From the IMG/VR virus record IMGVR_UViG_3300025313_000005: a stretch of 20,000 bases of DNA, one strand, 5' to 3'. Shown piece by piece: positions 1-15,185 of the stretch (its first letter is position 1; the number at the start of each line of letters is the position of its first letter). The stretch comes from an uncultured virus (IMG/VR IMGVR_UViG_3300025313_000005) (lineage: Duplodnaviria; Heunggongvirae; Uroviricota; Caudoviricetes). The notes below the pieces were generated by a model. That model was given only the letters and a program-made list of their open reading frames with translations, did no database searches and was not told the DNA's origin. The position numbers were made by a program, and so were the translations under genes.

Positions 1-48
1 TTGTCTACCTTCCCAAAACCTACTCTTACCTTGTGTAATTACTTTCAT
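1..48 (-). CDS. 5' end of a hypothetical protein running off the window (MKVITQGKSRFWEGRQ...)
   Basis: ATG at 48 preceded by GAAAGGTAGGT RBS; open to the window edge. Confidence 0.6.
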   Translation of the reverse strand, partial: MKVITQGKSRFWEGRQ

Positions 49-75
49 AATACCTACCTTTCTTAATCTATTATA

Positions 76-104
76 TATATAATATAATAATTGTGACTTG
101 TCAA
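76..104 (-). promoter_or_regulatory. Putative sigma70-type promoter
   Basis: Minus strand TTGACA (104-99), 17 nt, TATATA (81-76), in the gap upstream of the gene starting at 48; -10 box imperfect and region very AT-rich. Confidence 0.45.
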
Positions 105-107
105 ATT

Positions 108-962
108 CTATATAGTAGTACTACTTAGATAATCTAGGAGATCAAGTCCCGACTCGGTAATATATGTGTATCCATTTATATTGTTAATACAATCAATGTC
201 TTCTAATTTATCTAGAATAAGTTGATTATCTGTGGTGGATGCCATTAGAGACAACTGTATACCAGTTAAGCTATTATCGCTAAGCTTGCTTAGTACAGCA
301 ATATATTTATTTATCTTGTGTTGCTTATCATAAAGAAGGTGTTCAGCTAAATTAACAACCTGATCTGGAATATTGGATTTTTCTGTGTAACTATCAAATA
401 AGTCATTTTTCCAGGGGACATCGTGGTTTTGCGGGAAACTATAATCTTCTATACGCTCATAGGCAAACGTAGTTTGAGGTTTTACACTAACGGTTCTTAG
501 TATAACTGACCTTATTTGTTCGCTATCAACAAATGCTGGACTAATAATTATATTTATTTTCTTATATCCCTTGCCTCCGCAAGGCAAGTCTACCTGTTCA
601 GTTGCTTCTATATTCCCCATATGATTAGTTACTATGGCAAATTTGTAATTAGGTAAAACAGTATCATAGTCCATACTGGAAAATTTAGCGGACATAGTAT
701 GATGAGAATGTATCATTCCATCCCACTGCCCTTTTTGTTCTTTTAATAAGCAATCTGCAACTGCAATTTCCTGTTCTGGAAATACTAGTTCGGTAATTTC
801 ACGGGATTTATTTACTTTAAATAAAGCAAGTAGCTCTAAGTCTGGATAAACCTTAGTGGCGTATACCCATTTCTCCCATAGTTTCATTGAGAAATATAGT
901 ACATCACTCTGAGCAGATACCCAGTCACAACTTATACATGGTTTTGTAGCTAATGTCATCAT
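108..962 (-). CDS. JAB/MPN+ (Mov34) metalloisopeptidase, putative deubiquitinase/Ubl-maturing protease, with possible C-terminal winged helix
   Basis: Exact JAMM motif H-S-H-x7-S-x2-D (GMIHSHHTMSAKFSSMD), upstream Glu (PDLELLALF) and FPEQEI strand; C-terminal YITESGLDLL resembles a wHTH end; directly follows the ThiF gene. Confidence 0.85.
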   Translation of the reverse strand: MMTLATKPCISCDWVSAQSDVLYFSMKLWEKWVYATKVYPDLELLALFKVNKSREITELVFPEQEIAVADCLLKEQKGQWDGMIHSHHTMSAKFSSMDYDTVLPNYKFAIVTNHMGNIEATEQVDLPCGGKGYKKINIIISPAFVDSEQIRSVILRTVSVKPQTTFAYERIEDYSFPQNHDVPWKNDLFDSYTEKSNIPDQVVNLAEHLLYDKQHKINKYIAVLSKLSDNSLTGIQLSLMASTTDNQLILDKLEDIDCINNINGYTYITESGLDLLDYLSSTTI

Positions 963-965
963 AAA

Positions 966-1904
966 TTAATCCTCCGATGTTGTAAAATTAATTTTAAGTT
1001 CTCTTATTAGTTCATTAGGAATATCGTCTTCAGTCATCTCGTCTTTAAAATCTTCAATAATATCGTCTATGAGATTTTGTGGAACATCATGTTTATCCAT
1101 ACGTTCTATATATTTATCAACAACATCTTGAACTCTACTTGGCAAACTATCAATATCTATATTGTCTAAGTAGCTATCTATTGCGTCATCAAATACCCAA
1201 CAATCTTCATGGTTACAGTCATCACTGCCATGGTAATCACCATCATCAAGTATCTCATCCTTAACATCATCTTTTATCTTATTTAATATTGTTTTCGGTA
1301 TTAAGGAGGAATTAAACGCAGTTAAAGTACTCATTGGAGCAGATATAGAAACCTCATTCTCAAACATAGAGTATACAGCAAGTAATCCAGCAAGAGCAGC
1401 TTGATAAACCTTTGGTTTATCGCTGTAGTCAGTTCCTTCTTGATGTTCTTGCTGGGGATCAAAGGTTATTGGTATACCTCTTGTAATTGTAATCCAATCA
1501 CCGTCATATCCAGCGCGTTGATATTTTATTCGATTGTCTTGACAGTAAGTTCTAACTAATCTCTGAATATCTACAGTATCAGTAGCACAAAATACATGTG
1601 TAGTATCATTTAATAAAACACTAATGTTATCACTAGATAAAGCACTAGACATAACGTTTATTGTAAATGCAGGTTTTGTATCGTAAATGGTCTTGCTAAG
1701 ATATGTTACTTTTTTTGTGTTTCTATCAGTATGTGTTGTAGGTAATCTTGTAAGATTATTGTCTTCTAATGTATCATAATCAATAAGAGTTAGGTTATTA
1801 ATACTAGAAAAATGTGAATCTTTCGAAGCTAATGCAAGAAAGTAAGCAATCCACGATCCAACACCTCCACATCCTATTATTGTTATGTTTGTTGTTTTTA
1901 CCAT
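966..1904 (-). CDS. ThiF/MoeB/E1-family adenylyltransferase with acidic repetitive C-terminal extension
   Basis: IIGCGGVGSW nucleotide-binding loop, LIDYDTLEDNNLTR, KKV and FCATDT..QR motifs; RBS AAGGAGG. Confidence 0.9.
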   Translation of the reverse strand: MVKTTNITIIGCGGVGSWIAYFLALASKDSHFSSINNLTLIDYDTLEDNNLTRLPTTHTDRNTKKVTYLSKTIYDTKPAFTINVMSSALSSDNISVLLNDTTHVFCATDTVDIQRLVRTYCQDNRIKYQRAGYDGDWITITRGIPITFDPQQEHQEGTDYSDKPKVYQAALAGLLAVYSMFENEVSISAPMSTLTAFNSSLIPKTILNKIKDDVKDEILDDGDYHGSDDCNHEDCWVFDDAIDSYLDNIDIDSLPSRVQDVVDKYIERMDKHDVPQNLIDDIIEDFKDEMTEDDIPNELIRELKINFTTSED

Positions 1905-1916
1905 GGTTTAGCCTCC

Positions 1917-2534
1917 TTAAATTAAGACTGCTGTAAGAAACTTAGGAATACTTCCTAAAGATATATTTCTTAGATCATCTAATATTTGTGTCCAACTAGA
2001 TGATAAATCGCAATCATCCCTAAGAGTATGTGCGCTATCTGTATTATAGATACTTAAAATATTTTCTATGTCAGAAACTCTGTTTTGTAAGTTTTCAGGC
2101 TTTGTTGTAAAGACAGTGCTTCCAAAGCAAACCTGATTGGTATCTTTATCATAATGAAAAGGCGGAAAATACTCTTTCCAATTATCTGGTGTAATGCCTG
2201 GAATAGGCAAAAGCCGTATGCTTACTGGTGGCTCATATATTATCATGAGTGGTACTGTTTCTTGCATATGAACTGGAATGTTCCAGGTTACATTATTATG
2301 ATATATTTTTTTAATAGAAAAGTTTCCAAATGCTATTGAGTAGATCTGGCTATCCTCAACCTGGTATATACCAGGTTGAGGTAGTGTTATTGTGTTTGTG
2401 ATGTGATTATTTAAGACTCTCAAACATGTATTGTGCGTCGCAAGACCGCTTTCTATATCATATCTGTCTTGTTTTTCCTGCTCTTGTACAATAGCATAGA
2501 GCGTTTCTACTTCATTATCTTCCAGGTTTAGCAT
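1917..2534 (-). CDS. Putative prokaryotic E2 (UBC-fold) conjugating enzyme
   Basis: FPPFHYDKDTNQVCFGS matches the E2 active-site pattern H-x(n)-[IV]-C-x-G, followed by a helix ending YNTDS; sits between Ubl and E1 genes, start overlaps the Ubl end. Confidence 0.6.
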   Translation of the reverse strand: MLNLEDNEVETLYAIVQEQEKQDRYDIESGLATHNTCLRVLNNHITNTITLPQPGIYQVEDSQIYSIAFGNFSIKKIYHNNVTWNIPVHMQETVPLMIIYEPPVSIRLLPIPGITPDNWKEYFPPFHYDKDTNQVCFGSTVFTTKPENLQNRVSDIENILSIYNTDSAHTLRDDCDLSSSWTQILDDLRNISLGSIPKFLTAVLI

Positions 2535-2751
2535 ATGTTCTCAATTCTAGGACATCATCGTGTGCTAGGTCAAGAGGCAGCTCATTCTTATTAACTATTT
2601 CACGACCATTAAGGATTACGTCTACGGTAGTAATATTCCTAGTTTTTAGAGCTTGTTTTAAAGCCTCTAAAAGGGACATGCTCCCGTCATAAGAAATTAC
2701 CTCTCCATTTATGAGAATCTTTCCTACTTCATTAAAGTCATTGATATTCAT
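2515..2751 (-). CDS. Ubiquitin-like (ThiS/MoaD beta-grasp) protein ending KPG-R
   Basis: 78 aa; KILINGE...SLLEAL...VILNGREI...LAHDDVLEL pattern of ThiS/MoaD fold; penultimate Gly; RBS AAGGAG. Confidence 0.8.
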   Translation of the reverse strand: MNINDFNEVGKILINGEVISYDGSMSLLEALKQALKTRNITTVDVILNGREIVNKNELPLDLAHDDVLELRTYAKPGR

Positions 2752-2767
2752 TATATACTTCTCCTTC

Positions 2768-2980
2768 TTAGTCTGTTATGTACTCATTATTGTCGTCATA
2801 TTCACCCAATGTTTTCTTAATTACTCTTGGCGCAGGCATATTAAAATCAGACAAGCTGATTATTAATTTGGTTATTCCTTCGCATATACTACATGGAGGT
2901 GTATTATGACGATTATCTATAGTATTAATATGTGTGGTTATTTTATTACAATCACCACATTTATATTCGTATATAGGCAC
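2768..2980 (-). CDS. FmdB-family zinc-ribbon protein
   Basis: MPIYEYKCGDC...PPCSICEG...KLIS signature; GTG start with AGGAGG RBS. Confidence 0.85.
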   Translation of the reverse strand: MPIYEYKCGDCNKITTHINTIDNRHNTPPCSICEGITKLIISLSDFNMPAPRVIKKTLGEYDDNNEYITD

Positions 2981-3005
2981 GTTATCCTCCTATTTGAAGA
3001 TAGAG

Positions 3006-3028
3006 GGGCGGGGCTATAAGCCCCGCCC
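3006..3028. terminator. GC-rich intergenic hairpin (terminator or processing/regulatory stem)
   Basis: GGGCGGGGCT-ATA-AGCCCCGCCC perfect 10-bp stem; no clean U-tract on the minus (coding) strand. Confidence 0.5.
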
Positions 3029-3037
3029 TGTTCTATT

Positions 3038-3223
3038 TTAGCGCCGTTCTCCTACATTGTAAGGGAATTGGCCCTTCATGGTTCCCCATGCTTTTACTGC
3101 TGCAACTTGAGATGTTGAGAACCCAAGCTTCTCAGCAAGATTACTAATAGGGAGAGGCTTCTTCTTGCCACTATTCTTAATAACAGCATTGAAGATTTTG
3201 TTCCTTTGTCTGTTTGTGAGCAT
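3038..3223 (-). CDS. Small basic HTH-like protein (61 aa)
   Basis: ATG at 3223 preceded by AGGAGGAG (better than the 3277 start); ISNLAEKLGFSTSQVAAVK is HTH-like. Confidence 0.65.
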   Translation of the reverse strand: MLTNRQRNKIFNAVIKNSGKKKPLPISNLAEKLGFSTSQVAAVKAWGTMKGQFPYNVGERR

Positions 3224-3242
3224 TATGCTCCTCCTTTCGATA

Positions 3243-3410
3243 CTATTTTTTGTTTTTGTAGTGCAAACTCCTGGCACGCTGTTCAGTATGCCATAAGAAG
3301 TTTGCTATTTCATCAGACGGAAAAGAACTAGATGTAACTTTATTTACAGGGTTAGATTCTTTTTGTTTTACAAACAATAGATTTATCATCTGCTTTATCC
3401 ATCTAAACAT
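3243..3410 (-). CDS. Hypothetical protein (55 aa, MFRWIKQMINLLFVKQ...), below ORF-track cutoff
   Basis: Manual translation; fills the gap after the Rad52-like gene; AAGGA upstream. Confidence 0.5.
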   Translation of the reverse strand: MFRWIKQMINLLFVKQKESNPVNKVTSSSFPSDEIANFLWHTEQRARSLHYKNKK

Positions 3411-3423
3411 TTTATTTGATTCC

Positions 3424-4149
3424 TTAGCTTTTTACTTTTTCTTTTGGCTTACTCGTTGATTCTCCAATCAATTGATTGATTACTTTGCTTACTTCAGATT
3501 GTGTTAAGTTGCCTTCTTGTAAACCAAAATCAGCAACTGTTTTGCTATGCTCTCCTAACAACTTAAACATAAGGTTCAGTGACTTTTCAGATGCTGGAGC
3601 GGGGTTGGTGTTATTAGATGTACTGCTAGAGTCGGTAGTTACTATTGGTTTTCTATTAAACTTATTAGGTGTTTTAATTGTTGTTACTGGAACTGGGGTA
3701 GTTAGTGTAGTATCAGAGGACATCTCTGTTGCGATCTCATCACTATCATCATATAGATGTAGACCAATACCTAATTGTGATGCAGCTTTCTTGATAGCAT
3801 CTGATGATGCTGCTTTATAATCATTACCCAAGTCTACTATAATACCAGCCTGGGTCTTTTTAACCTTAGCTGAACCAAAGCCTTGCTTTACTATTGTGGT
3901 ACCCTCATGTCGAACGGTTAATTCAACAACAACAACTATATTACCTTCGTCTGTTGCTGTACTTTCTGGCGTAAAATAAAGTATACGACTATCCACGTCA
4001 TGTCCAAATACTTCATTTAACCGCTCTAATACTGCATGAGTGGGGATATAACTAAGAACCTTACCCCCTTTATGTAATTCACGTTTTTTAATTAAACTAG
4101 GATCAAATTTCCTATTTATTTTTTCAACTATCTCTTTTGGCAAAAACAT
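3424..4149 (-). CDS. Rad52/Rad22-family (Sak-like) single-strand annealing protein
   Basis: LSYIP...VLERLNEVFG, VVVELTV...KQGFG, DYKAASSDAIKKAASQLGIGLHLY signature; low-complexity linker and C-terminal LTQSEVSKVINQL helix; RBS AAGGAGGT. Confidence 0.9.
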   Translation of the reverse strand: MFLPKEIVEKINRKFDPSLIKKRELHKGGKVLSYIPTHAVLERLNEVFGHDVDSRILYFTPESTATDEGNIVVVVELTVRHEGTTIVKQGFGSAKVKKTQAGIIVDLGNDYKAASSDAIKKAASQLGIGLHLYDDSDEIATEMSSDTTLTTPVPVTTIKTPNKFNRKPIVTTDSSSTSNNTNPAPASEKSLNLMFKLLGEHSKTVADFGLQEGNLTQSEVSKVINQLIGESTSKPKEKVKS

Positions 4150-4169
4150 TACGTATTACTTACCTCCTT

Positions 4170-4319
4170 TTATTTTACTAATATAGTTTTCTCTTTACTA
4201 CATACCGTACAACGTAATTTAGTACCCTTGCCAGCTTCACTGTGAACTCTCTGGCCCTTGCCATATCTTTTATCTTGGAATTCGTGTGAGCAATTACAAC
4301 CATATATTTGTGCTGGCAC
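4170..4319 (-). CDS. Small putative zinc-binding phage protein (49 aa, MPAQIYGCNCSHEFQDKRYGKGQRVHSEAGKGTKLRCTVCSKEKTILVK)
   Basis: Manual translation; GTG start right after the previous stop, AGGAGG RBS; CxC...CxxC pattern. Confidence 0.75.
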   Translation of the reverse strand: MPAQIYGCNCSHEFQDKRYGKGQRVHSEAGKGTKLRCTVCSKEKTILVK

Positions 4320-4583
4320 TTATACATCCTCCTTTCTTTTAATCTCATTGCGATCAAGGTTTTCTTGCAATCTATCTATGTCTTCTTTTGATAAATCACC
4401 AACCTTAATAGACTTGATATGTATGCCATCAAACAATACGCTTACAAGAAGCAATATAGAACCGCATCCAAGTATCATCCCAGCTATAACAGCTGGTAGT
4501 TGTTCTATTCTACCCCATGTAATTAGTACTGGTGAAGCAGCAATCGATAAGAGAACTAATACTATCTTAAATATCTTATTCAA
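4320..4583 (-). CDS. Small two-TM membrane protein
   Basis: Two hydrophobic stretches then charged tail; AAGGAG RBS; coupled to upstream ORF. Confidence 0.7.
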   Translation of the reverse strand: MNKIFKIVLVLLSIAASPVLITWGRIEQLPAVIAGMILGCGSILLLVSVLFDGIHIKSIKVGDLSKEDIDRLQENLDRNEIKRKEDV

Positions 4584-4797
4584 TAGTTTTCTCCTTCTGG
4601 TTTAGCTCTGGAAAGATATCTAACAGCATAACTAATATCCTACCCAGGCATTGCATCTCTACTTCTTCTTCGATACAGTTACCTTCTTTGTATGGATGTA
4701 CCAAACGCTCCAAAGGATACTTGCCATTAATACCCAAGTACCAATCTTCCACACCAGCATAAAATATTTCTAATCTCTTGGTTATTGATTTAGCCAT
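4576..4797 (-). CDS. Hypothetical protein with degenerate LL(G/N)I-type tag (QCLGRILVMLLDI)
   Basis: ORF with AAGGTG RBS, packed between neighbours. Confidence 0.65.
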   Translation of the reverse strand: MAKSITKRLEIFYAGVEDWYLGINGKYPLERLVHPYKEGNCIEEEVEMQCLGRILVMLLDIFPELNQKEKTIE

Positions 4798-4808
4798 ATT
4801 ACACCTTC

Positions 4809-5015
4809 TTATTCAAAAAATTCTTTATTGTAAATACCAAGTAAAAATTTGACTACAAGACTAGGCGTTGAAATCTCAGCATTTGGCGAACAAGATACCA
4901 ACTCATAACAATATGAAGTGTCAAGTTTGGTCTTTGCTACGTGCACACCCCAATGATTAATACCATGGTATATTGATATAGATTGATATAGAGAATTACA
5001 GCATTGTTTAATCAT
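4809..5015 (-). CDS. Hypothetical protein with C-terminal tag STPSLVVKFLLGI
   Basis: ATG overlaps the upstream stop; shared tag. Confidence 0.6.
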   Translation of the reverse strand: MIKQCCNSLYQSISIYHGINHWGVHVAKTKLDTSYCYELVSCSPNAEISTPSLVVKFLLGIYNKEFFE

Positions 5016-5232
5016 ATAAACATGGTACTTCTATACCAAAGAGTGCTTGACATACTATTGCTGGTGTTGTTGTATTAAGACCTCTGCATTTAGGATACAT
5101 AGCCCTAATCTTATTCATCTCACGGACGGTAATTCTTACCCGTAAATCTAGATAGTCATCCATAATATCTATTGCTACTACATTGGTTGAAGCTAATGGT
5201 GTTTTCATTTGAGTTGGCGCATACCATTCCAA
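5008..5232 (-). CDS. Hypothetical protein with C-terminal tag TTPAIVCQALFGI
   Basis: TTG start uncertain (frame stays open upstream to about 5328); shared tag. Confidence 0.55.
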   Translation of the reverse strand: MEWYAPTQMKTPLASTNVVAIDIMDDYLDLRVRITVREMNKIRAMYPKCRGLNTTTPAIVCQALFGIEVPCLYD

Positions 5233-5375
5233 CTTATCCTGTAGAGCACAATGAGCTAAATGGGATGGTGTTATAGATAGTCTACTCGACCACTTATTTG
5301 TTATAGTGTTCTTGAAAAATATTATTGTTTAATCAAACAATAAATTATACCTAACTTCGCTAACATACATATTAC

Positions 5376-5404
5376 TTGTATATCCTCCTATACTATGCTA
5401 TTAT
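5376..5404 (+). promoter_or_regulatory. Putative sigma70 extended -10 promoter for the lone plus-strand gene
   Basis: TTGTAT (5376-5381), 17 nt ending TGC, TATTAT (5399-5404). Confidence 0.55.
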
Positions 5405-5439
5405 TGTCTTTGTAAGCTACCTCAAATAAGAAAGGAGAT

Positions 5440-5670
5440 ATGTACATGGCTGCTTTCAAAGTTCGCTATATTAAACGTGGACTTAGGAACACTGAGTCTT
5501 TTATAGACCATAAGAACGGTATTGTTTTAACCTCAGACAATCCCGTTTCCGACGACCTCTCAGGACTTGCTGATTTAAGCATTATCCTACGTGGTCTTAA
5601 GATGGACCTTCTTAAGATAGAACAAGGTACGTTAGCTGATATCAACGTAACTACAAGTTACCACTACTAA
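5440..5670 (+). CDS. Hypothetical protein; only convincing plus-strand gene (start 5440 or 5446)
   Basis: AAGGAGA RBS, own promoter and terminator, no competing minus-strand ORF. Confidence 0.75.
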   Translation: MYMAAFKVRYIKRGLRNTESFIDHKNGIVLTSDNPVSDDLSGLADLSIILRGLKMDLLKIEQGTLADINVTTSYHY

Positions 5671-5751
5671 TTAAAACTTTGTCTTAAAAGACAATCACTA
5701 GATAAGATATGGACGAATACAACCCAAAGTTCTGGTGGTTATACGATCTGT

Positions 5752-5782
5752 GCGTATCCTTTGGGATACGCTTTTGTTTTTT
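5752..5782 (+). terminator. Rho-independent terminator
   Basis: GCGTATCC-TTTG-GGATACGC followed by TTTTGTTTTTT, between convergent genes. Confidence 0.85.
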
Positions 5783-5972
5783 ATTTGGCTATACCCAATA
5801 ACATCCCAATAACAAAATCTGGCGTAGCTATACCACTAGTCATTGTTGGTGGTATAGCACGATTAAAACAACACATATAACTACTAGCAATTATATAAAG
5901 CACTGAAGCATTACTACCACAGTAACAATTAAGAACGGCATTATTGCTATATGTAATTATATCATAAATCAT
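5781..5972 (-). CDS. Hypothetical protein with C-terminal tag ATPDFVIGMLLGI
   Basis: Overlaps upstream Zn-finger ORF; shared tag. Confidence 0.55.
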   Translation of the reverse strand: MIYDIITYSNNAVLNCYCGSNASVLYIIASSYMCCFNRAIPPTMTSGIATPDFVIGMLLGIAK

Positions 5973-6096
5973 TATCGTCTATACACACTTTCAAGCACTC
6001 TTCACATAAAGTCATAGGAGAGTTAACTGATATTTCTCCACAATTATCACACACATAGTCACCACTATCATACATTAAGTCATCTTTTTTATTCAT
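5962..6096 (-). CDS. Small CxxC-x12-CxxC zinc-finger protein (44 aa, MNKKDDLMYDSGDYVCDNCGEISVNSPMTLCEECLKVCIDDNDL)
   Basis: Manual translation; AGGAGA RBS. Confidence 0.7.
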   Translation of the reverse strand: MNKKDDLMYDSGDYVCDNCGEISVNSPMTLCEECLKVCIDDNDL

Positions 6097-6160
6097 ATCT
6101 ATCTCCTATAATATTAAGTAGTAATCTACATATTCTCTCAGTGGTTGCCTCATCATTCCA

Positions 6161-7438
6161 TTAAGTACCCTGCATAATCACACTACTACCCCAAGGAGCA
6201 GCTCTATCATGATCTTTAGTATATACCCATAGTACGGGGAACTTGGGTTTATCTTGTGGTGCAGTACCACAACCATCTGTAAAATAAACTACACCATCAA
6301 AAGATAATCTCTTTTCGGCTATGTAATCAAATGCAGGTCTAAAATCAGTACCTCCCCTACCTGTAAATTCATGAACTTCTTTACGTTTGAACTTATATAC
6401 AGCTCCAACCCTTGCATCTGATTCTATAATGGTTAGTTCTGTACTTTTATATCTTGATATAGTATTGAGCTCGTTTAGGAAAGCTGATAATTGCTTATTG
6501 TTTATCGATCCAGATGTATCTATAATAGCACACAGGTTGAGCTTACGCTCCCTGCAATATCCTGGCGGTAGCTGTAACCTACGATTATAACGTTTGAGCG
6601 TATAACGCCTGGTATTATTGCGTGTGCTAGTTACAAATCTACGAAGAACTACATTCCAAGGTACTTCACTATTTAATATTCTTCTAATAAGAGATTTAAT
6701 TTGTCCTGGCAGTTTCCCTTGTGTTTTAATATAAGCTTCTTGGAGCTCACCTTTTATTATACCTTCATAGTATTTTTTACTTATATCTTTATAATCAGCC
6801 ATGTCTTCTTCATCTGGAGTACCCCACATGCTATGGTCATCTATCATCTTTACCTCAGCTTTCCCTCCACCAGGCATTTTTAATTCTCCATCTTGCTCTA
6901 TTTTCTGACGTAAGAATTGATAGTAAACATTTGCAGAACTAAACCTAGAAGGAAAGTCATGATACTGCTCAAGAAATCCATCATAAGTTATATTTTCTTT
7001 TTCTAAAAAGTTAGATTCCATAAACTCATTAACCACAATATCACAAGCAATATTCCATAAAGTATGCTCTAAGACAATGGGTGTTCTTATTGGATGCATC
7101 ATTATTATGTGTAGAAATTCATGTTCTAAGACTGTCTGTATCTGATTCTGATTAAGCGATAAGACATAATGTGGATTAATACATAATATCAGACTTGTCG
7201 CACTCATACCTACACCCATTGTTGGGACGTTTTTGGTGCTAAAGATACGCTTAAACCGCATAAGAAGATAAGCATATAATGCTTTATCTCCTGCAATTAT
7301 CATGGAAGCAAGAGCGCTAGCAAATACCTGTTCTGCTTTTTTATACTCTACAGGACTCGCATCTTCCCCACTAGCCCACTTGGGTAGTTCTTTTTTATCT
7401 ACACTAGCAATACCATTATCAGCAATATCATTAGACAC
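6161..7438 (-). CDS. DUF2201-type HExxH metallopeptidase-like + vWA domain protein
   Basis: PTMGV, LEHEFLHII, WNIACDIVVN, IDDHSMW, IIDTSGSI (MIDAS), GRGGTDFRPAF, VVYFTDG; likely GTG start at 7438 overlapping the ATPase stop rather than 7501. Confidence 0.9.
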   Translation of the reverse strand: MSNDIADNGIASVDKKELPKWASGEDASPVEYKKAEQVFASALASMIIAGDKALYAYLLMRFKRIFSTKNVPTMGVGMSATSLILCINPHYVLSLNQNQIQTVLEHEFLHIIMMHPIRTPIVLEHTLWNIACDIVVNEFMESNFLEKENITYDGFLEQYHDFPSRFSSANVYYQFLRQKIEQDGELKMPGGGKAEVKMIDDHSMWGTPDEEDMADYKDISKKYYEGIIKGELQEAYIKTQGKLPGQIKSLIRRILNSEVPWNVVLRRFVTSTRNNTRRYTLKRYNRRLQLPPGYCRERKLNLCAIIDTSGSINNKQLSAFLNELNTISRYKSTELTIIESDARVGAVYKFKRKEVHEFTGRGGTDFRPAFDYIAEKRLSFDGVVYFTDGCGTAPQDKPKFPVLWVYTKDHDRAAPWGSSVIMQGT

Positions 7439-8597
7439 TTGCTGTTGCCTTCTTCTTTTCTTTCTCTTCCAACTCCAACTCTTGTTCAAGTAGTGTATCA
7501 AAGATATCTATCAGATGATGTTCGTTAGCAACATCTCTTGTCCTAACCACTTGACTAAACACTTCTTTATTTCTACATATTAATTTAAACAGATTAAACA
7601 ATCTTTGGTTACAACCTATTGCTCTCATAAAACTTACAACTAAATCAAGAGGAAGATCTATTATTAATAAACATATACTCTCGACAAAGCTAGACTGAGT
7701 AATGTTAGAGTCTATATACTTGTCAAGATACCTAGCCGTGTCATCTAATCCACGAGACAATACATCCATCTGTTGGTTTTGAATAAGCTTCTGAATTTTA
7801 GTGCGAATTTTTTTATAGTTTTCTACAAGAAGTTTAGAATCTAATGGTTGGTATTTGTCAATAACAAATCTCTTATATGATAGTCCACCAGCCTCACCGA
7901 TATTGCCCATAGCAATATCTAGAAATAAATCATAATCTTTCTTCTCAATGAATTTATCCAACTCAACTAACTTAAGTGCATTGCTTAAGCGTTCCCAACC
8001 TCTACGAGTTGGATAGGCTTGCCCCTTACTTGGGTCAAGATATATATTATCTTGCTTAATAAATTCGCAGACAGATTTGCATATATTATTTTTCTCTGCC
8101 CAACTCAACCACTCTTCAACTGTTGGTTCATATATTACTTTCCAGAACCTATCTTGCAACGCTATATCTAATGGAGATACATCATATCCATCTATCTCAG
8201 GATTTATAGCTGAGACAACAATACAATCTAGAGGCAATGTATGTGTATGTAATTTGAAATCTCTCACTAATTGAAAGATAGCTTGTTTTACATCCTGGGT
8301 ACCACGATTTAATTCATCTAAAAAGATAACAACTTTCTCGCCCTCTTTAGGCCACCAACTTGGGGGAGCCCAATAGGTATAACCGTCTTTAACTATAGGC
8401 ATACCTATTAAATCAGCCACTTCTTGCTGCCCTAATCTTAAATCTGCCAAACGATAACCTAATTCGCTTGCGACTTCAGCAACAACAGCCGACTTCCCTA
8501 TTCCATGCACCCCTTCTATCAGTAATGATACTCGATTACCGTTACCACTGTTCTGAATAAGTTTTCTTAGTACCTCTTGTAGCTGTAAAGTATTCAC
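7431..8597 (-). CDS. MoxR/dynein-related AAA+ ATPase
   Basis: Walker A GVHGIGKS, DLIGMP, Walker B VVIFLDELNR, SAINP sensor, ALQDRF Arg finger, PTRRGWE; paired with vWA gene. Confidence 0.92.
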   Translation of the reverse strand: MNTLQLQEVLRKLIQNSGNGNRVSLLIEGVHGIGKSAVVAEVASELGYRLADLRLGQQEVADLIGMPIVKDGYTYWAPPSWWPKEGEKVVIFLDELNRGTQDVKQAIFQLVRDFKLHTHTLPLDCIVVSAINPEIDGYDVSPLDIALQDRFWKVIYEPTVEEWLSWAEKNNICKSVCEFIKQDNIYLDPSKGQAYPTRRGWERLSNALKLVELDKFIEKKDYDLFLDIAMGNIGEAGGLSYKRFVIDKYQPLDSKLLVENYKKIRTKIQKLIQNQQMDVLSRGLDDTARYLDKYIDSNITQSSFVESICLLIIDLPLDLVVSFMRAIGCNQRLFNLFKLICRNKEVFSQVVRTRDVANEHHLIDIFDTLLEQELELEEKEKKKATASV

Positions 8598-8659
8598 CTA
8601 CCAATACCTCTTTCTTTATTATATTCTAATATCAATACCCAGTAATGCTCTTACTATAT

Positions 8660-9646
8660 CTACACATATTGTTTTCTCATATAAGCCAGATCAGCCTTAC
8701 CGAGCTCTTCTCCTAATACATCTAGTTCTATTAACCTTATTTTATGTCCCATAATCTCACATACATGTGTATTATCTTTAAACCAACGTATGGTCTTAGG
8801 ATTAATATCTTTTAATCTACTTGCTTCATCTTGATATTGCTCTCTTGCTTTAAACATATGAGCTGGACATGTATTTTCCTCTAAAGACATTTGCCTTAAT
8901 TTGACAATACTTAAATACCTACTTTCGTCTTCCCCTCTCGGACGTGACATTGTTTGTGGCTCGCCTTGTGTTCTAACATATCCCCTATCTTTCTGTACTC
9001 TGGAATATCCATGGCTTTGATCGGAGTTCCATGTTGCATTAATATTATTAGTTATCTCTTTATCTACAAACGCACCAGTTACAGCACACCGCCATAAAGG
9101 AAGATGTGGTTGATCTTTTATGTCCTGAACACTTCTCTCGTAGGGTTGATTTCTAAAGCTGTTTTCTTTATCTCTACATGCGAAGGAGCAATTACTACAA
9201 TTACGATATTGACTTACGTTATTATTACGTCTGTAAGCAGGCCACTCTTCTCCATACAATCCTTTAACAACCAGTCTAGGTACTCCATAGAATAATACGG
9301 GCGATATATTTCTTCCTAGATTATAACCATCTAGGATATTTATCTGAGGAATACCTGGCTGATAAGTGCGCAGAGCTTGCTGTATCTTACTTAGAATATC
9401 ACCATCTACCCCTTGCTTTGCAAGGGTAGATGTTATGTGTTGATTGGTTTCTTGCGTATTACCTAATGCCCAACTAGCCCAAAATCTATAACCAATTGTT
9501 TGGGTAGTATCCTTAATCTTATATATCCACCCCCTATAAGATATACTATTGCTTTCATCTACTATGAAATCAAACTGAGCAATACGTTCATTTCCACTCT
9601 TGTTTGTGACGCTACACTTCTGTGCTCTTACATACATGAACATCAC
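8660..9646 (-). CDS. Hypothetical protein with dispersed Cys/His cluster (CSNC..AC, WRC, CPAH); probable start 9637
   Basis: Long ORF; GAGGTG RBS best spaced for ATG 9637. Confidence 0.8.
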   Translation of the reverse strand: MMFMYVRAQKCSVTNKSGNERIAQFDFIVDESNSISYRGWIYKIKDTTQTIGYRFWASWALGNTQETNQHITSTLAKQGVDGDILSKIQQALRTYQPGIPQINILDGYNLGRNISPVLFYGVPRLVVKGLYGEEWPAYRRNNNVSQYRNCSNCSFACRDKENSFRNQPYERSVQDIKDQPHLPLWRCAVTGAFVDKEITNNINATWNSDQSHGYSRVQKDRGYVRTQGEPQTMSRPRGEDESRYLSIVKLRQMSLEENTCPAHMFKAREQYQDEASRLKDINPKTIRWFKDNTHVCEIMGHKIRLIELDVLGEELGKADLAYMRKQYV

Positions 9647-9661
9647 CTCTTGTTAAAAGAT

Positions 9662-9757
9662 AGCTTGCGAAGCAAGCTTCGTTTACTTAGACCACCTGAA
9701 AAGCAAGACGTCAAGGCTTTAAGCGAAGCGTGCCTTGACGTTGAAGCTGCAGGTGGT
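9662..9757. repeat. Structured intergenic element, copy 1
   Basis: AGCTTGC-GAA-GCAAGCT hairpin, 12 nt, ACCACCTG/CAGGTGGT outer stem enclosing ACGTCAAGGC/GCCTTGACGT inner stem; homologous to 14923-15013. Confidence 0.85.
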
Positions 9758-9779
9758 TGCAGTTTATTTTAATTTTTCT

Positions 9780-10040
9780 TTATATATTTAATAATATTCT
9801 TGCTAGATTACTAGGCGTTGCAGGTGTAGGTGAAACATTATTGAAATCAGAATATATCCCTGGTTGATGGACTTTCTTTATAACAGATGGTGTAATATAA
9901 GTAATTGAATTTGCTTTTAAGAACTGATTATTATCAAATCTACTATCATATATCTCGTAAACTTTACTTCTTAGTAAGTATGATATACCCATAATATTGA
10001 TAGTTAAATATATTTCATACGGAAGTAATTGATTAGACAT
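9780..10040 (-). CDS. Hypothetical protein with C-terminal tag ATPSNLARILLNI
   Basis: ORF; shared tag. Confidence 0.6.
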   Translation of the reverse strand: MSNQLLPYEIYLTINIMGISYLLRSKVYEIYDSRFDNNQFLKANSITYITPSVIKKVHQPGIYSDFNNVSPTPATPSNLARILLNI

Positions 10041-10092
10041 GTGTTTCTTCTTCTTATGAAATACCTAGTAATAACATAGACACATTTCTCTC

Positions 10093-10377
10093 TTAGCTCC
10101 TGCCAATGTCTGGATATGCTTTTGGGGCTGCAGGATAATTAGTACCTCTTGTAGGTCCATCAGCACCTACCAATGAATTAATTCTACTATGGAAGTGAGG
10201 TCTATTGCTACCAAATATCTTAGGGAACATAGACGTACTAAATTCTTGCACGGTTATTATCTCACTAGCAAAGAGAGTTTGTGCTTGAGCCCTAGCATCA
10301 ATTAAGCTTAATGCATCTATTATAAAATCATCGTAGCCACCTCTACGGTGGCTTATGTGTACTAAAAATTGAGGCAT
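10093..10377 (-). CDS. Hypothetical protein
   Basis: AAGGAG RBS; in-frame tag copy after its stop. Confidence 0.7.
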   Translation of the reverse strand: MPQFLVHISHRRGGYDDFIIDALSLIDARAQAQTLFASEIITVQEFSTSMFPKIFGSNRPHFHSRINSLVGADGPTRGTNYPAAPKAYPDIGRS

Positions 10378-10435
10378 ACTATCTCCTTCTTATGGGTATT
10401 CCTAGTAATGCTGAAACTAATATATATAGAAATAC

Positions 10436-10810
10436 TCATAGTGGTCTCAGATGTAATTCTATTTTATCTTCGTACGTATTAATATCACAGTTAGAACACG
10501 AACATATAATGAGAAACCCCCTACCATTTTCTGGAAGTTCTCCATCAATAGAACATAGGCTATCGATTGGTAGACCCTGAGATATTATCCTTACGCCATC
10601 GGCCTTATCCACAACTAAATCAAACATATGAGATGGAGTGTGTAGTGCGTTAATGGCCGCTTCATGGAAAGCCACGGCTAATTGAATACCAAATAATCTA
10701 CATACAGCCCTTCTAAGGGCTCTTATTTGTAGTCTATCTGATGCATCATATGAACCCTCATGCCTATTGTTCAATTTAATATCATGGCGTAAACCAGTGA
10801 GTAATCCCAT
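10436..10810 (-). CDS. Hypothetical protein
   Basis: AAGGAGGT RBS; in-frame tag copy after its stop. Confidence 0.7.
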   Translation of the reverse strand: MGLLTGLRHDIKLNNRHEGSYDASDRLQIRALRRAVCRLFGIQLAVAFHEAAINALHTPSHMFDLVVDKADGVRIISQGLPIDSLCSIDGELPENGRGFLIICSCSNCDINTYEDKIELHLRPL

Positions 10811-10815
10811 GTCAG

Positions 10816-11037
10816 CTACCTCCTTAAGTTAAGTAACATAATAACCATGTGTGATAGAGTACAAAAACACTCCTCGTCCCTATTAAGAGGGTCTGCATGT
10901 TTTATTGGTGTATCCTCCTGAATTCCATGAGGATTTATCGTGATAAATCTACAAAAATTATTCTCATAACATATATGTAGGTAGTTTATTGTACACTTCA
11001 TTGAATGATATACGGCTACAGGGTTCATATTATTCAT
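10816..11037 (-). CDS. Hypothetical protein with C-terminal tag CTLSHMVIMLLNL
   Basis: ORF packed between neighbours; shared tag. Confidence 0.55.
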   Translation of the reverse strand: MNNMNPVAVYHSMKCTINYLHICYENNFCRFITINPHGIQEDTPIKHADPLNRDEECFCTLSHMVIMLLNLRR

Positions 11038-11041
11038 TGCT

Positions 11042-11245
11042 TTAATTCATATGTGCATTCGGCATATGTTCTGGTTTATGTCCTGTTTCTTCTTTGTATC
11101 TCTCCACAATATTATCTACTACCTCTTGTGCTTCTTCGTGGGTATCAAATATAACTTGAAATATCTTATTTGTATCACCATCTTCTACTCGAACGATCCA
11201 TTTATTAGTCATAACACTATAACCTAATTGTAATCTAGCTGGCAT
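11042..11245 (-). CDS. Hypothetical protein
   Basis: AAGGAG RBS; beta-beta-alpha pattern ending FDTHEEAQEVV. Confidence 0.75.
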   Translation of the reverse strand: MPARLQLGYSVMTNKWIVRVEDGDTNKIFQVIFDTHEEAQEVVDNIVERYKEETGHKPEHMPNAHMN

Positions 11246-11345
11246 AAACTTCTCCTTCTTATATTAAATTTAGTATATGTTTAGTAATTGTTTAACCAGT
11301 ATATATAGCGATGCCAAATGCTTCAATTCCTCTCTCTATACTCTC

Positions 11346-11594
11346 TTAGTCATAGGCTTTATAGATAGTAAGGCATGGTCCCGCAGGAGGAACCAATACC
11401 AATTGAGTATCCCTCCTATGTTTCATCTTAACAGGTATAAATATCTGCCTATCTTGTAACCATGTAGCTATTATAGATGTGCTTAATCTATACCTACCTT
11501 TTTGAATTATATTTTTAGGTTTACGTCTAAGACTTAGTTTATTCTTCTGCATGTAAAATATGGTTCTCCTCTTCTTCGTCGTAAATAGAGCCAT
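11346..11594 (-). CDS. Basic hypothetical protein (start may be the internal MQKNK)
   Basis: ORF; GAGGAG precedes the internal ATG. Confidence 0.5.
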   Translation of the reverse strand: MALFTTKKRRTIFYMQKNKLSLRRKPKNIIQKGRYRLSTSIIATWLQDRQIFIPVKMKHRRDTQLVLVPPAGPCLTIYKAYD

Positions 11595-11635
11595 CTATGG
11601 CGCTTTATCCACGGTCCTATCGTGGAGGGGAATAG

Positions 11636-11896
11636 CTAAATATTTAATAGTGTTTTACAAAACGAACTTAAACAAGCGATATCATCTTCATATAATAAAT
11701 TGATAAGCGCAGTACCTGATGCAGATGTTATAATATTAGGATAAACATAATATGATTTATAGTTTCTACACCAACCGACGCTAGACATTGAGCCCTCATA
11801 TATAACCATTATGCCTTCAGAATTAAAAGGCTTAGTAGTAGGATCGGGTAAGTTAAGGATCTTATTTATTCTTTCCATAGAAGATAGCCACAGCAT
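11636..11896 (-). CDS. Hypothetical protein with C-terminal tag ACLSSFCKTLLNI
   Basis: ORF; start possibly 11878; shared tag. Confidence 0.55.
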   Translation of the reverse strand: MLWLSSMERINKILNLPDPTTKPFNSEGIMVIYEGSMSSVGWCRNYKSYYVYPNIITSASGTALINLLYEDDIACLSSFCKTLLNI

Positions 11897-12105
11897 GGTT
11901 TGCCATAGTGTGGTGGTTTCTTATAATGTCTAAAATAGTAATCATAGTTGTATCCCTTTGGATAGTTACGAAAGTACATCTCCTCTTTAGCATATGTATG
12001 TGTTGCTTCATAAAGAACTATTAAGGCGCGTGGTATAAAATTCCTTATCCAAAAATTTATTAGCATTGTGGGGTTCAAATACAAATACGCTTTATATGTG
12101 AACAT
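11866..12105 (-). CDS. Hypothetical protein
   Basis: Overlaps both neighbours in coupled fashion. Confidence 0.45.
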   Translation of the reverse strand: MFTYKAYLYLNPTMLINFWIRNFIPRALIVLYEATHTYAKEEMYFRNYPKGYNYDYYFRHYKKPPHYGKPCCGYLLWKE

Positions 12106-13006
12106 TTACTTGTCCGTCCTTAACTACTAATTCGTCATATGTTTTAGTTTGTAATCCCTTATGTAATACTAGTGTAGCCATAGATACTACATCACAATAT
12201 TTAATGGTAGCTACAGGATAATAATTAATATTTAATTCCTTAGCCATATCTTTAATAACCCGCCATACCGCATCGATTTGATCTTCTGCTTTATCTTTTT
12301 TATCTTTAATATATTTAGTTGTTCCCCTAGCTCGCATCATCGTAATAGCTAATTGTCCGCCATGATGAAGCTTACTTAATGCTAGCTCAATTGTTTTACC
12401 TTCTTCCGCCTTGACCTTGCCACAATAATCCAAATAAATCAGATCGTATTTGTTTTTTGTATCCCATAAGAACTCATAGATATTCTCATGATGTACGTGA
12501 ACATTGTTCTTATAGGCTGCTCGTGCTTTAACAGCAGCACAAACATAGCTGTGTATGTTGTGTTCTATTGAGTCTATTTGTGTACCAGGATTATACTTTA
12601 ATATCTCTGGTATATCATGTAGGTATGGTCCACCTAGAATAAGTATTTTAGGCTGTTTCTTACTATATAGACTTCGCTTGGCATATCTATACACAAGCTG
12701 TCTATTGATAGCTTTATTAATACCATCAAAAGGTAGTTGTTGCTTAATCCTATCTATTAAATCACTAGATTTATTTAGAGTAATAACATTAGCAGTACGA
12801 TAACCTTTATTAAATTGAATTAACCCAAGCTTATGCATACGTTGAATGAATCCACGCGCTTCAACGTAACTCTTATATCTACGTAACTCTGGTACAGATC
12901 TATAGAGGTCCGCAATAGAGTCTACTTGTTTGTGTTGTTCCAAATAGTCAATAGTAGCCTGCATGCGGTCTACTGCTTTCTTGCGAGTAATAGATGGATT
13001 ACTCAT
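12092..13006 (-). CDS. Class I SAM-dependent methyltransferase with N-terminal wHTH-like region
   Basis: KILILGGP (motif I-like), IDSIEHN (motif II), HENIYEFL, YDLIYLDYCG, LHHGGQLAIT. Confidence 0.8.
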   Translation of the reverse strand: MSNPSITRKKAVDRMQATIDYLEQHKQVDSIADLYRSVPELRRYKSYVEARGFIQRMHKLGLIQFNKGYRTANVITLNKSSDLIDRIKQQLPFDGINKAINRQLVYRYAKRSLYSKKQPKILILGGPYLHDIPEILKYNPGTQIDSIEHNIHSYVCAAVKARAAYKNNVHVHHENIYEFLWDTKNKYDLIYLDYCGKVKAEEGKTIELALSKLHHGGQLAITMMRARGTTKYIKDKKDKAEDQIDAVWRVIKDMAKELNINYYPVATIKYCDVVSMATLVLHKGLQTKTYDELVVKDGQVNVHI

Positions 13007-13065
13007 AGGAAGATCCTTCTTTCTCTAGATTGCTTCTTTAATCTTACTTATATTTATACTAGTAG

Positions 13066-13263
13066 TCATATTCCTAGTAATAATTTACATACCATATGAG
13101 GTGTTGCAATATCTTCACTAGAACATATCTTACTTTGATCATATTTTTGTGATCGTGATATGATAGCATTTCTAAATATACCAACGAGGAATAAAACTTC
13201 ACCCGTATCATTTCCAGTTTTATCAATGTGAACATTAGCATAACCAAATATCCACTTCTCCAT
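13066..13263 (-). CDS. Hypothetical protein with C-terminal tag ATPHMVCKLLLGI
   Basis: ORF; shared tag. Confidence 0.6.
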   Translation of the reverse strand: MEKWIFGYANVHIDKTGNDTGEVLFLVGIFRNAIISRSQKYDQSKICSSEDIATPHMVCKLLLGI

Positions 13264-13281
13264 TTCGGTTATTAGTTACAT

Positions 13282-13665
13282 TTAATAACCCATCAGTCTT
13301 CTCATAAGTGACTCACAGAAGGCAAGATTACCATCTCTACACATCTGTAATTTCATAGAGAACTCATAGTCATTCATGGGTGGTTGTGTATATGATGAGT
13401 TAGCTTCGTAATATGTACGATTAGGTACATAGCCTGGTTGAATAGGTATTGTTTGCAGGTTATATGGTCTAGGGTATGGCTCATAATACTGTTGTTGATA
13501 GATTGGATAAGGTTGGCATCTATGCTGTCCTTGTATAGCCTGAGTTAAAGTTAGAATACCAATAGCTAGGTTAATTGGATTAATCTGATCTGCATAAGAT
13601 ACCCTAACTGGTATTAAACATATGGCTAATAACAATATACACACTGTTTTATTTGCTGTTCTCAT
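13282..13665 (-). CDS. Putative exported protein, Pro/Tyr/Gln-rich
   Basis: Signal-peptide-like N-terminus (basic, hydrophobic, SYA-D). Confidence 0.65.
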   Translation of the reverse strand: MRTANKTVCILLLAICLIPVRVSYADQINPINLAIGILTLTQAIQGQHRCQPYPIYQQQYYEPYPRPYNLQTIPIQPGYVPNRTYYEANSSYTQPPMNDYEFSMKLQMCRDGNLAFCESLMRRLMGY

Positions 13666-13855
13666 TGAATAACCCCATTCCTGTTAAAAATGACATAGGA
13701 AATGCTATAGCACAACTTAGAATGATTCCCAATAACATATCAATATTATGATCTATATAATACAAAGTACTAGCTGCGCCGTATTGGAACACTGTTATTA
13801 TTAGTATATTAATTAATACTTTTAATATTATATTTAACTTCATAATTACCTCCAC
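13649..13855 (-). CDS. Small two-TM membrane protein (probable start at MKLNII)
   Basis: GGAGGT RBS before the internal ATG; two hydrophobic segments. Confidence 0.65.
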   Translation of the reverse strand: MEVIMKLNIILKVLINILIITVFQYGAASTLYYIDHNIDMLLGIILSCAIAFPMSFLTGMGLFNENSK

Positions 13856-13870
13856 TTTTATTGACTACGC

Positions 13871-14101
13871 TTATATCCCCAGTAGTATTCGTGCAATAAC
13901 AGACGGTGTAGACTTTTCATAATTATCTCTTGGACGCATTTTTCTGACTCGTTGTTTTGATGAATCAATATACGTAGAAAAAACCAATATATCAGAAGAT
14001 ATATTGGCTTGTAATTTTAATATCAAAGTTGCCGCATGTTTTGCACGTAATGTACGTTTTCTATCATCAAATATTTCAATGTTTTGATTAGTCATTTTCA
14101 T
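13871..14101 (-). CDS. Hypothetical protein with C-terminal tag STPSVIARILLGI
   Basis: Coupled to upstream ORF; shared tag. Confidence 0.6.
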   Translation of the reverse strand: MKMTNQNIEIFDDRKRTLRAKHAATLILKLQANISSDILVFSTYIDSSKQRVRKMRPRDNYEKSTPSVIARILLGI

Positions 14102-14297
14102 ACATCCAACTATAGAATACAGGATCTATGCCAGAATTGCATATTCTATTCTCTAATATCTTAACTAGACACGTAGAACTACACGTGTATATGTTATCCG
14201 ACTTTAATTTAAAGAGAGCGAGTTCCTTACAATACCCACATATCTCTTTGTTGGGAACTATAGTTTCTACTAAATTATGAAAGATCATATACTTCAT
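14088..14297 (-). CDS. Small CxxC...CSxxC zinc-finger protein
   Basis: ICGYC...YTCSSTC; AGGGGTG RBS. Confidence 0.65.
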   Translation of the reverse strand: MKYMIFHNLVETIVPNKEICGYCKELALFKLKSDNIYTCSSTCLVKILENRICNSGIDPVFYSWMYEND

Positions 14298-14370
14298 AAT
14301 ATGTTACACCCCTAATAATTGACGTACTAGTGTACTTGAACTAGCTACTCGATCTTTATAAAGAGGAGGC

Positions 14371-14402
14371 GCAGGAGCGCCCCCTCTATTAGGCGCTCCT
14401 GC
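14371..14402. terminator. GC-rich intergenic hairpin
   Basis: GCAGGAGCGCC/GGCGCTCCTGC 11-bp stem downstream of 14427-14894; weak U-tract. Confidence 0.5.
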
Positions 14403-14426
14403 TATAGGAGGGAAAACAATGTAGTT

Positions 14427-14894
14427 TTACTTATGATTACGTTCTTCAGCTTTAGTTAACTGATCAATAGGATCTACTATCTGAATATACTCTCTTGTAT
14501 CCGTTATCATACCACGCTCTATTACTTCACTGGGAGTTGTATATGCTTGTTTAAGTTGACTAAAGAATCCAAGCTTACGTATCTGTACTTGAGGACGCAT
14601 GCGCTCATTAAATGGTTCACTAATACTTATCATATAATCTATCTCGTAGGTATTACCATTCTTACCTGTTTTGGGTATACTTACTTTTTGATTTAGTATA
14701 TTAATTATAACATCTGTCTTTTTGCTCTTAAAGCTCTTATTGCGTTCACCTGTGGTGAACTTGGCTATAACCCCAGCTAATGCCACCTTAAGAGGTATGG
14801 TATCAAATACACGCAGTTCTAATTTGCGCGGAGAATCAACAGCACCTTGAACCTGACTTGCTACTTCTTCTGTAATTATTTCTTTTATTATCAT
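14427..14894 (-). CDS. Hypothetical beta-rich basic protein
   Basis: AAGGAG/AAGGA RBS; preceded by structured element copy 2. Confidence 0.8.
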   Translation of the reverse strand: MIIKEIITEEVASQVQGAVDSPRKLELRVFDTIPLKVALAGVIAKFTTGERNKSFKSKKTDVIINILNQKVSIPKTGKNGNTYEIDYMISISEPFNERMRPQVQIRKLGFFSQLKQAYTTPSEVIERGMITDTREYIQIVDPIDQLTKAEERNHK

Positions 14895-15023: not shown

Positions 15024-15185
15024 CTATTTAGAATTTAATGTTTCATATAAGAGATTAGCACAGTCTTCACTGCATATAAATGCTCTCATATCTTCATCAT
15101 ACCATTGAGTTATACTGCCACATTGCATACAATTTGTTTTCTTATTAGTTAGTATTAAATAATCTTGATAAATATTATTATCCAA
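15024..15185 (-). CDS. Small CxxC...CSxxC zinc-finger protein (TNCMQCG...FICSEDC), 5' end possibly disrupted
   Basis: Manual translation, 53 aa from TTG; the best RBS+ATG (15246) opens a different 12-codon frame. Confidence 0.55.
   Translation of the reverse strand: MDNNIYQDYLILTNKKTNCMQCGSITQWYDEDMRAFICSEDCANLLYETLNSK

Follow-up and report, generated by a model that had tools for sequence, protein, structure and literature searches.

We examined a 20,000-nt stretch of DNA from an uncultured virus (IMG/VR record IMGVR_UViG_3300025313_000005; the window), in which a series of small proteins end in a common short C-terminal motif, here called the tag, and in which further copies of the motif (orphans) lie behind the stop codons of other genes. 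An initial annotation of the window had taken four of these post-stop copies either as targets of stop-codon read-through, giving a tagged minority isoform, or as 3' remnants left by gene replacement. We found that the post-stop copies are probably scars of small tagged genes that were deleted or replaced, and not read-through signals. Comparison of sequences showed this 3'-remnant origin for one of them (orphan d), and we infer it for the others.

The tag follows the pattern (S/T/A)-T-P-x-x-(V/I/M)-x-(R/K)-x-L-L-(G/N)-(I/L/V), a footprint of 13 residues followed by 0-22 further residues, and it is carried by small open reading frames (ORFs) of 63-100 aa. The window is A+T-rich (G+C, 30-39%), and its bases 1-14074 matched the end of a 161,400-nt virus record (G001) at 99.99% identity. 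G001 is a large uncultured myovirus (estimated completeness, 73%) with structural genes for tail sheath, portal, large terminase and major head protein, along with genes for ribonucleotide reductase, thymidylate synthase, a UvsX-like recombinase, RNA ligase, helicase and primase. For all counts, the reverse complement of the window was joined to the rest of G001, giving a combined sequence of 167,326 nt whose positions are cited as "combined N". The minus strand carries the genes of the region, including all tags and orphans given below by window coordinates, and the plus-strand ORF 5440-5670 is the sole opposite-strand gene there. Six orphans were found in the window, four in frame with the gene ahead of them (a, b, c, and d) and two out of frame (e and f). 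A seventh, also out of frame, lies in G001 directly 3' of a tagged gene.

An intact counterpart of orphan d in a related phage

Orphan d (6089..6160) consists of 23 codons and a stop, in frame 3' of the TAA (6163-6161) of the gene for a vWA-like and metallopeptidase-domain protein (6161..7501, minus strand; DUF2201_N/DUF2201, Pfam E values of 2.7e-24 and 1.1e-20), and it includes the ribosome-binding site of the zinc-ribbon ORF 5962-6096. A metagenome scan yielded two contigs of a relative, L011 (9,100 nt) and L012 (1,555 nt). The vWA protein of the relative (P0003, on L011) was 68% identical to that of the window, ended at the same terminal residue and was untagged. Between the vWA stop and the zinc-ribbon ORF, L011 carries three intact tagged genes (2066-2296, 2300-2524, and 2517-2762), and at that place the window has orphan d alone. 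Orphan d aligned to the third of these genes over its final ~22 codons and its ribosome-binding site. This alignment to the end of an intact gene at the same place showed orphan d to be the 3' remnant of a tagged gene, and it directly supported the remnant origin that the initial annotation had offered as its second option; the other copies fit the same origin. The bodies of the three L011 genes had no matches in the 167 kb of combined sequence. Orphan d was ~55-60% identical to its L011 counterpart (by eye on the alignment), compared to 71-72% for the flanking genes.

The number of tagged genes also differed between the two phages at other syntenic places (2 vs 1, and 1 vs 0). From the vWA gene to ORF 4320-4583, the window has four attached tags and one orphan, compared to eight attached tags in L011, the single relative compared. 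Between the two, the bodies of tagged genes could not be aligned, and similarity returned within or just after the tag. Other searches for relatives gave less. A nucleotide search of GenBank phages returned no matches, and one search with the vWA protein returned relatives that were all below 60% identity (top, ~29%). Four IMG/VR scans gave no close relative: three were without any, and one gave a 20.9-kb locus (27% identical) in which no convincing tag was seen. Among sequencing runs containing this virus, none of RNA was listed. Contigs of four sequencing runs, mapped at 80% likeness, contained a diverged relative over parts of 5.6-9.2 kb and nothing bearing on the tags.

Orphans have lost half of the tag and fill the spacers

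We assessed whether orphans are as well kept as attached tags with a scoring matrix trained on the eight tags of the relative alone, scoring the five N-terminal positions, which had not been used in detection. The median score of these positions was 6.6 bits in 14 attached tags and -0.9 in seven orphans (Mann-Whitney test; p = 0.0013). Proline at position 3 was found in 13/14 attached tags and in 0/6 orphans (Fisher exact test; p = 1.8e-4), or in 1/7 when the G001 orphan is included, such that the orphans are without the conserved N-terminal Thr-Pro half of the tag. It was noted that this count left out an internal match (combined 733), alternative-frame matches in long ORFs (combined 13791 and 17963) and eight background matches beyond 48 kb, and that it added the G001 orphan, which the pattern had missed.

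The individual orphans vary in how much of the footprint they keep. Orphan c (10054..10092; 12 codons and a stop) lies in frame 3' of the TAA of ORF 10093-10377, and this stop occupies the Thr position of the motif, so that the C-terminal half alone remains; it contains a GTG start and an ATG start, and the ATG opens a mini-frame (MLLLGIS, then a stop). Orphan b (10379..10435; 18 codons and a stop) follows in frame immediately 3' of the TGA of ORF 10436-10810 and contains the ribosome-binding site of ORF 10093-10377. Orphan a (14304..14426) is a 40-codon open stretch 3' of the TAA of ORF 14427-14894 with a weak tag match at its end, scoring below 6 bits in the scoring-matrix scan, and the ribosome-binding site of ORF 14088-14297, 9 nt before the ATG, is formed by its LLGV codons. 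Most of these 40 codons are made up by a non-coding element, a G+C-rich hairpin of 12 bp (14371..14402, minus strand) that appears in both the minimum-energy and the centroid structures (region z = -3.1). Orphan e (8616..8672; footprint 8672-8634 and a short tail) is in frame +2 relative to ORF 8660-9646, with its core (8645-8634) 17 nt past the first base of the stop, and the TAG stop of that ORF falls within its tag-like DNA. Orphan f (11270..11314), in which the footprint is followed by one codon and a stop, does not share the frame of ORF 11346-11594, and its core (11287-11276) lies 61 nt past the first base of that ORF's stop. At the G001 copy (combined 23877-23975), the out-of-frame orphan tag RGPSYTIRILLGV comes immediately after a tagged gene, and the LLGV codons of this orphan form the ribosome-binding site of the next tagged gene (TTG start).

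A total of 21 gene junctions was curated by hand across window 15686-5781. Seven of these have an untagged upstream gene and a spacer of at least 40 nt, and an orphan was present in six of the seven spacers, largely filling them. Another seven junctions have an untagged upstream gene and a spacer below 40 nt or an overlap, and none of these contained an orphan. The orphans are in effect the spacers of a tightly packed region.

These observations are consistent with the orphans being the last 10-25 codons of tagged genes whose bodies would have been removed, or exchanged for others, in a rapidly changing early-gene region. The terminal part of a lost gene would tend to remain, in our proposal because the ribosome-binding site for the following gene adjoins it or lies within it. 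The remnant would then drift, its Thr-Pro half being lost or cut away, and it might fall in frame with the preceding stop by chance; orphans would not be translated as extensions to any useful degree. Such remnants would resemble the deletion scars of phage ORFan regions, in which dispensable small genes are lost and short non-coding leftovers remain between kept genes; homology to the 3' end of a syntenic intact gene was found for orphan d, and a loss of conserved residues was found across the orphans. They differ in that the leftovers here are recognizable by a C-terminal motif common to the lost genes. Spontaneous deletion of an "ORFanage" region has reportedly been seen in a cyanophage.

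Stop-codon read-through

Read-through, whether programmed or leaky, would tag a minority of the vWA, ORF 10093, ORF 10436 and ORF 14427 molecules and, if true, would be a novel mechanism by which phages produce tagged isoforms. We consider it very improbable. The four in-frame copies are present as the initial annotation had quoted them, and the distances from the first stop base to the first Leu codon of the LLG core (42 nt for d, 24 for c, 30 for b, and 111 for a) are all multiples of three. It was also correct that three copies have no start of their own, since a, b and d are without an in-frame ATG, GTG or TTG ahead of the tag, and a strong hairpin lies ~25 nt past the stop of ORF 14427. 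The absence of an intervening stop likewise held, but it is trivial for b, c, and d, where the stop abuts or cuts the 13-residue footprint. The in-frame share of the window orphans (4/6; p = 0.10) was as suggestive, and no more, as had been stated. A wider count by frame gave 4/7 with the G001 copy (p = 0.17) and 3/6 when copy a was removed from the seven (p = 0.32), and the frame bias was not significant in any of these counts.

The stop codons themselves also argue against read-through. The in-frame orphans are preceded by TAA+T, TAA+G, TGA+G, and TAA+A, three of four being TAA, and the leaky kind of stop that programmed read-through uses (UAG or UGA with a weak context) was not seen. In bacteria, TAA leaks least of the three stops, and it ends 14 of 22 curated genes in the region. 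A check for suppressor tRNAs was negative, as ARAGORN found no tRNA genes, suppressor or other, in the window and in the 161.4-kb G001, a negative that is weakened by the incompleteness of G001. The Thr-Pro half is missing from the extensions, and in orphan c the stop itself takes away part of the motif. A precedent, the A1 protein of Q-beta, is made by read-through of the coat-gene UGA and shares with the present case an in-frame open stretch 3' of a stop codon. In contrast, most stops here are TAA, and the extensions, which are short and degenerate, have not been kept as such in relatives.

The relatives were informative on this last point. In addition to the untagged P0003, the homologue of ORF 10093-10377 (P0131, on a 7,660-nt contig; 76% identity) is 89 aa long with an untagged end, and the three homologues of ORF 14427-14894 (79, 46, and 34% identity) all stop where ORF 14427 stops and are untagged. 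For three of the four genes, then, the extension was not kept as an in-frame coding extension, and the genes upstream of orphans a, c, and d are, by these comparisons, natively untagged. A protein-cluster look-up found nine of ten proteins and none with a longer variant, each upstream ORF being a single sequence seen on ~20 contigs. Orphan d, moreover, is the end of a separate gene in L011.

Two related candidates were tried and set aside. A recent nonsense mutation in a once-tagged gene, considered for orphan c with its stop at the Thr position, was rejected because the 76% identical P0131 is also untagged. A -1 frameshift joining ORF 8660-9646 to orphan e had no canonical slippery site, and in L012, a short contig, passing from the frame that resembles the end of the ORF to that of the tag would take a +1 shift, not -1.

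Chance matches

Some or all of the orphans might instead be chance matches to a short, Leu-rich, low-complexity pattern in A+T-rich spacers, a reading to which we give hardly any credence. With a core-only pattern, the combined sequence contained 31 matches in the three gene-strand frames compared to two on the other strand; 23 of the 31 fell in the first 48 kb and eight in the remaining ~119 kb. From these eight matches outside the tag region, ~0.7 would be expected per 10 kb, which leaves room for roughly one chance match among the six orphans. Copy a, with its low score and its LLGV codons serving as a ribosome-binding site, and copy c, of only 10 residues, would fit this reading. Against this, six orphans lie in ~9 kb, where ~0.7 would be expected, copies d and e have clear homologues, and copies b and f resemble each other.

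Selection on the tag and a possible cis-acting role

Nucleotide conservation by codon position in 24 attached tags was 0.78, 1.18, and 0.34 bits, and synonymous codons mostly followed genome usage. The exceptions were a modest excess of ACG at Thr2 (p = 0.0065), TTA at Leu10 (p = 0.04) and a shift at Arg8 (p = 0.04), all p values being uncorrected over seven tests. Because third codon positions are free and codons are mostly at genome usage, selection on the tag acts at the peptide level. The tag is thus a real peptide-level C-terminal motif, kept by protein selection in intact genes. An untranslated copy of such a peptide signal is therefore left without a reason to be kept.

This bears on another explanation, in which the C-terminal half of the tag and the ribosome-binding site together form a cis-acting DNA or RNA module that is selected irrespective of translation. 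The orphans would be functional punctuation, with the module serving perhaps as a junction for recombination or as part of the 5' leader of the following gene. We regard this as unlikely, though several patterns fit it. Each overlapping module of one to three genes in 15686-5781 ends in an attached or orphan tag, except one ending at 15024. Orphan e matched the attached tag at combined 47413, 36 kb away, at 26/30 nt. Among 496 pairs (mean, 15.0; sd, 2.8), this was the highest value, and it suggests that tags have exchanged sequence. Orphans b and f are alike at 21/30 nt and have the ribosome-binding stretch in common as well as the remnant; it was noted that CTATATATA, common to both, occurs 13 times in the 167 kb, unrelated to gene starts. 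The return of similarity to L011 in or after the tag, next to bodies that cannot be aligned, would also be expected of such a module. On the other side stand the freely varying third codon positions and largely genome-like codons, together with the lower conservation of orphan d compared to its flanking genes. Sigma-70-like promoters were not enriched in the region (55 found vs 58.8 expected), by which the tag was also rejected as a promoter, and a search of Rfam returned no matches.

Some observations do weigh against the scar interpretation. The LLG(I/V) half was kept in orphans about as in attached copies (median, 14.1 vs 11.0; p = 0.29), as the cis-acting module would also have it. This retention arises largely because the orphans were detected by that half, and there may also be some constraint on its DNA or RNA. 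The 4/6 in-frame count is in the direction that the initial annotation had predicted. L012 has a tag copy (2-73) upstream of the AAA gene, the same place as orphan e in the window, and its presence in both phages would be a long persistence for a neutral scar, with the caveat that the L012 copy may still be part of a gene, a point beyond the reach of a 1,555-nt contig. Finally, an intact syntenic counterpart was found for orphan d alone, the DNA comparison of orphan sites having covered d (in L011) and e (in L012).

The likenesses of orphan e to combined 47413 and of b to f, and the presence of the L012 copy at the place of orphan e, hint at exchange between tags, and perhaps at a retention of the C-terminal half that would not depend on translation. 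They would fit tags that act as recombination patches in the manner of the PeSL cassettes described below. For the tag as a recombinogenic sequence, as the initial annotation had described it, the 26/30 match across 36 kb is a hint and not a demonstration.

The family of attached tags

As they stand, the orphans would be ordinary gene-loss scars in a plastic early region, and the tag family is the more interesting object. At least 24 small tagged ORFan proteins were found in two related uncultured myoviruses, 16 in the phage of the window and eight in its relative. The strict pattern gave 10 copies, 10/10 on the gene strand, between 4.4 and 31 kb of the combined sequence, and the scoring matrix extended the copies out to 47 kb. 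Our reference example, STPSVIARILLGI, lies at 13874..13912, at the C-terminus of ORF 13871-14101. The other attached footprints of the window are at 15521-15483, 13107-13069, 11677-11639, 10863-10825, 9821-9783, 5828-5790, 5070-5032, and 4871-4833.

The bodies of the tagged proteins had no likeness detectable by BLAST, save for one orthologous pair and one marginal pair (E = 0.001). The marginal pair comprises ORF 10816-11037 and combined 30276-30545 (in G001), both tagged, which have a common N-terminal stretch (39% over 31 residues) and provide the sole hint of paralogy among tagged-gene bodies within the genome. Pfam returned no families for 10 tagged or tag-like ORFs, and one tagged protein, searched against 5.8 billion proteins, had no homologue outside its own cluster.

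Judging from its residues, the attached tag resembles a single amphipathic helix, short and capped: it opens with Ser/Thr-Pro, has a hydrophobic face that includes one basic residue, and closes with Gly and a hydrophobic residue. A search of the ESM Atlas with the last 27 residues returned single-helix look-alikes only and no lead. The membrane-targeting sequence of MinD is a C-terminal amphipathic targeting helix, and the tag is like it in pattern alone, as a short capped helix that ends, or nearly ends, proteins with no relation to one another. If the tag turns out to be a docking or targeting signal common to many early proteins, this would suggest that they all use one hub, of the host or of the phage.

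The tag can be compared to known shuffling cassettes. According to Arbiol et al. (2010; PMC2839356), promoter-early stem-loop (PeSL) cassettes mediate modular shuffling in the hyperplastic regions of T4-type phages. Both systems have a short repeat that punctuates a region of small, non-essential ORFan genes. Close relatives of T4-type phages have genes between the repeats inserted, deleted or replaced, and a similar pattern may hold for the tag. PeSLs differ in being a non-coding promoter with a terminator, whereas the tag is a coding 3' gene end with conservation at the peptide level. No promoter signal was found in the tag, which does not have the promoter and stem-loop of a PeSL, and recombination at the tag is only hinted at. 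Comeau et al. are also said to have described, in 2014, PeSL cassettes and modular shuffling in T4-type phages.

By analogy, the tag might play the part of a PeSL within coding sequence, acting both as a peptide module and as a patch of homology for cassette exchange, with the orphans as crossover sites kept as such. We hold this to be rather unlikely, though conceivable. The peptide role would be that of a docking, membrane-targeting or turnover signal. If recombination were guided by the tag as well, PeSL-mediated shuffling would have a coding analogue in it.

Further elements of the region

A repeat of ~60 nt was found in the two longest spacers (14979-14923 and 9718-9662, minus strand), with only these two copies in the 167 kb. 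It consists of CCTTGAC, ~30 nt and the perfect hairpin AGCTTGC-TTC-GCAAGCT, and it lies 25-30 nt before the starts of ORF 14427-14894 and ORF 8660-9646. From its layout, it may be a unit of promoter and leader hairpin, nearer to PeSL in form than the tag. In G001 (L005-L006), the octamer TATAAATA immediately precedes the ribosome-binding site in several opposite-strand genes on the structural side (e.g. combined 79955, 67502, and 60211), with 15 and 24 occurrences on the two strands. We presume a resemblance to the late promoter of T4-type phages.

A hairpin at window 5752-5771 and at ~3312-3335 of L011 separates the tagged gene 5781-5972 from the opposite-strand gene 5440-5670, which converges on it. 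It is kept in both phages with a different stem sequence (compensatory changes) and is probably a bidirectional terminator. The stretch at 5430-5753, which holds the plus-strand ORF 5440-5670, for which there is no annotation, is the best conserved relative to L011 (88% nucleotide identity over 324 nt). Three small ORFs (5962-6096, 14088-14297, and 15024-15185) carry CxxC...CxxC/CxxxC zinc-ribbon-like motifs, and two of the three overlap the start of a tagged gene. The pair of zinc-ribbon ORF and tagged gene was also encountered in L011 (2763-2900 and 2900-3109).

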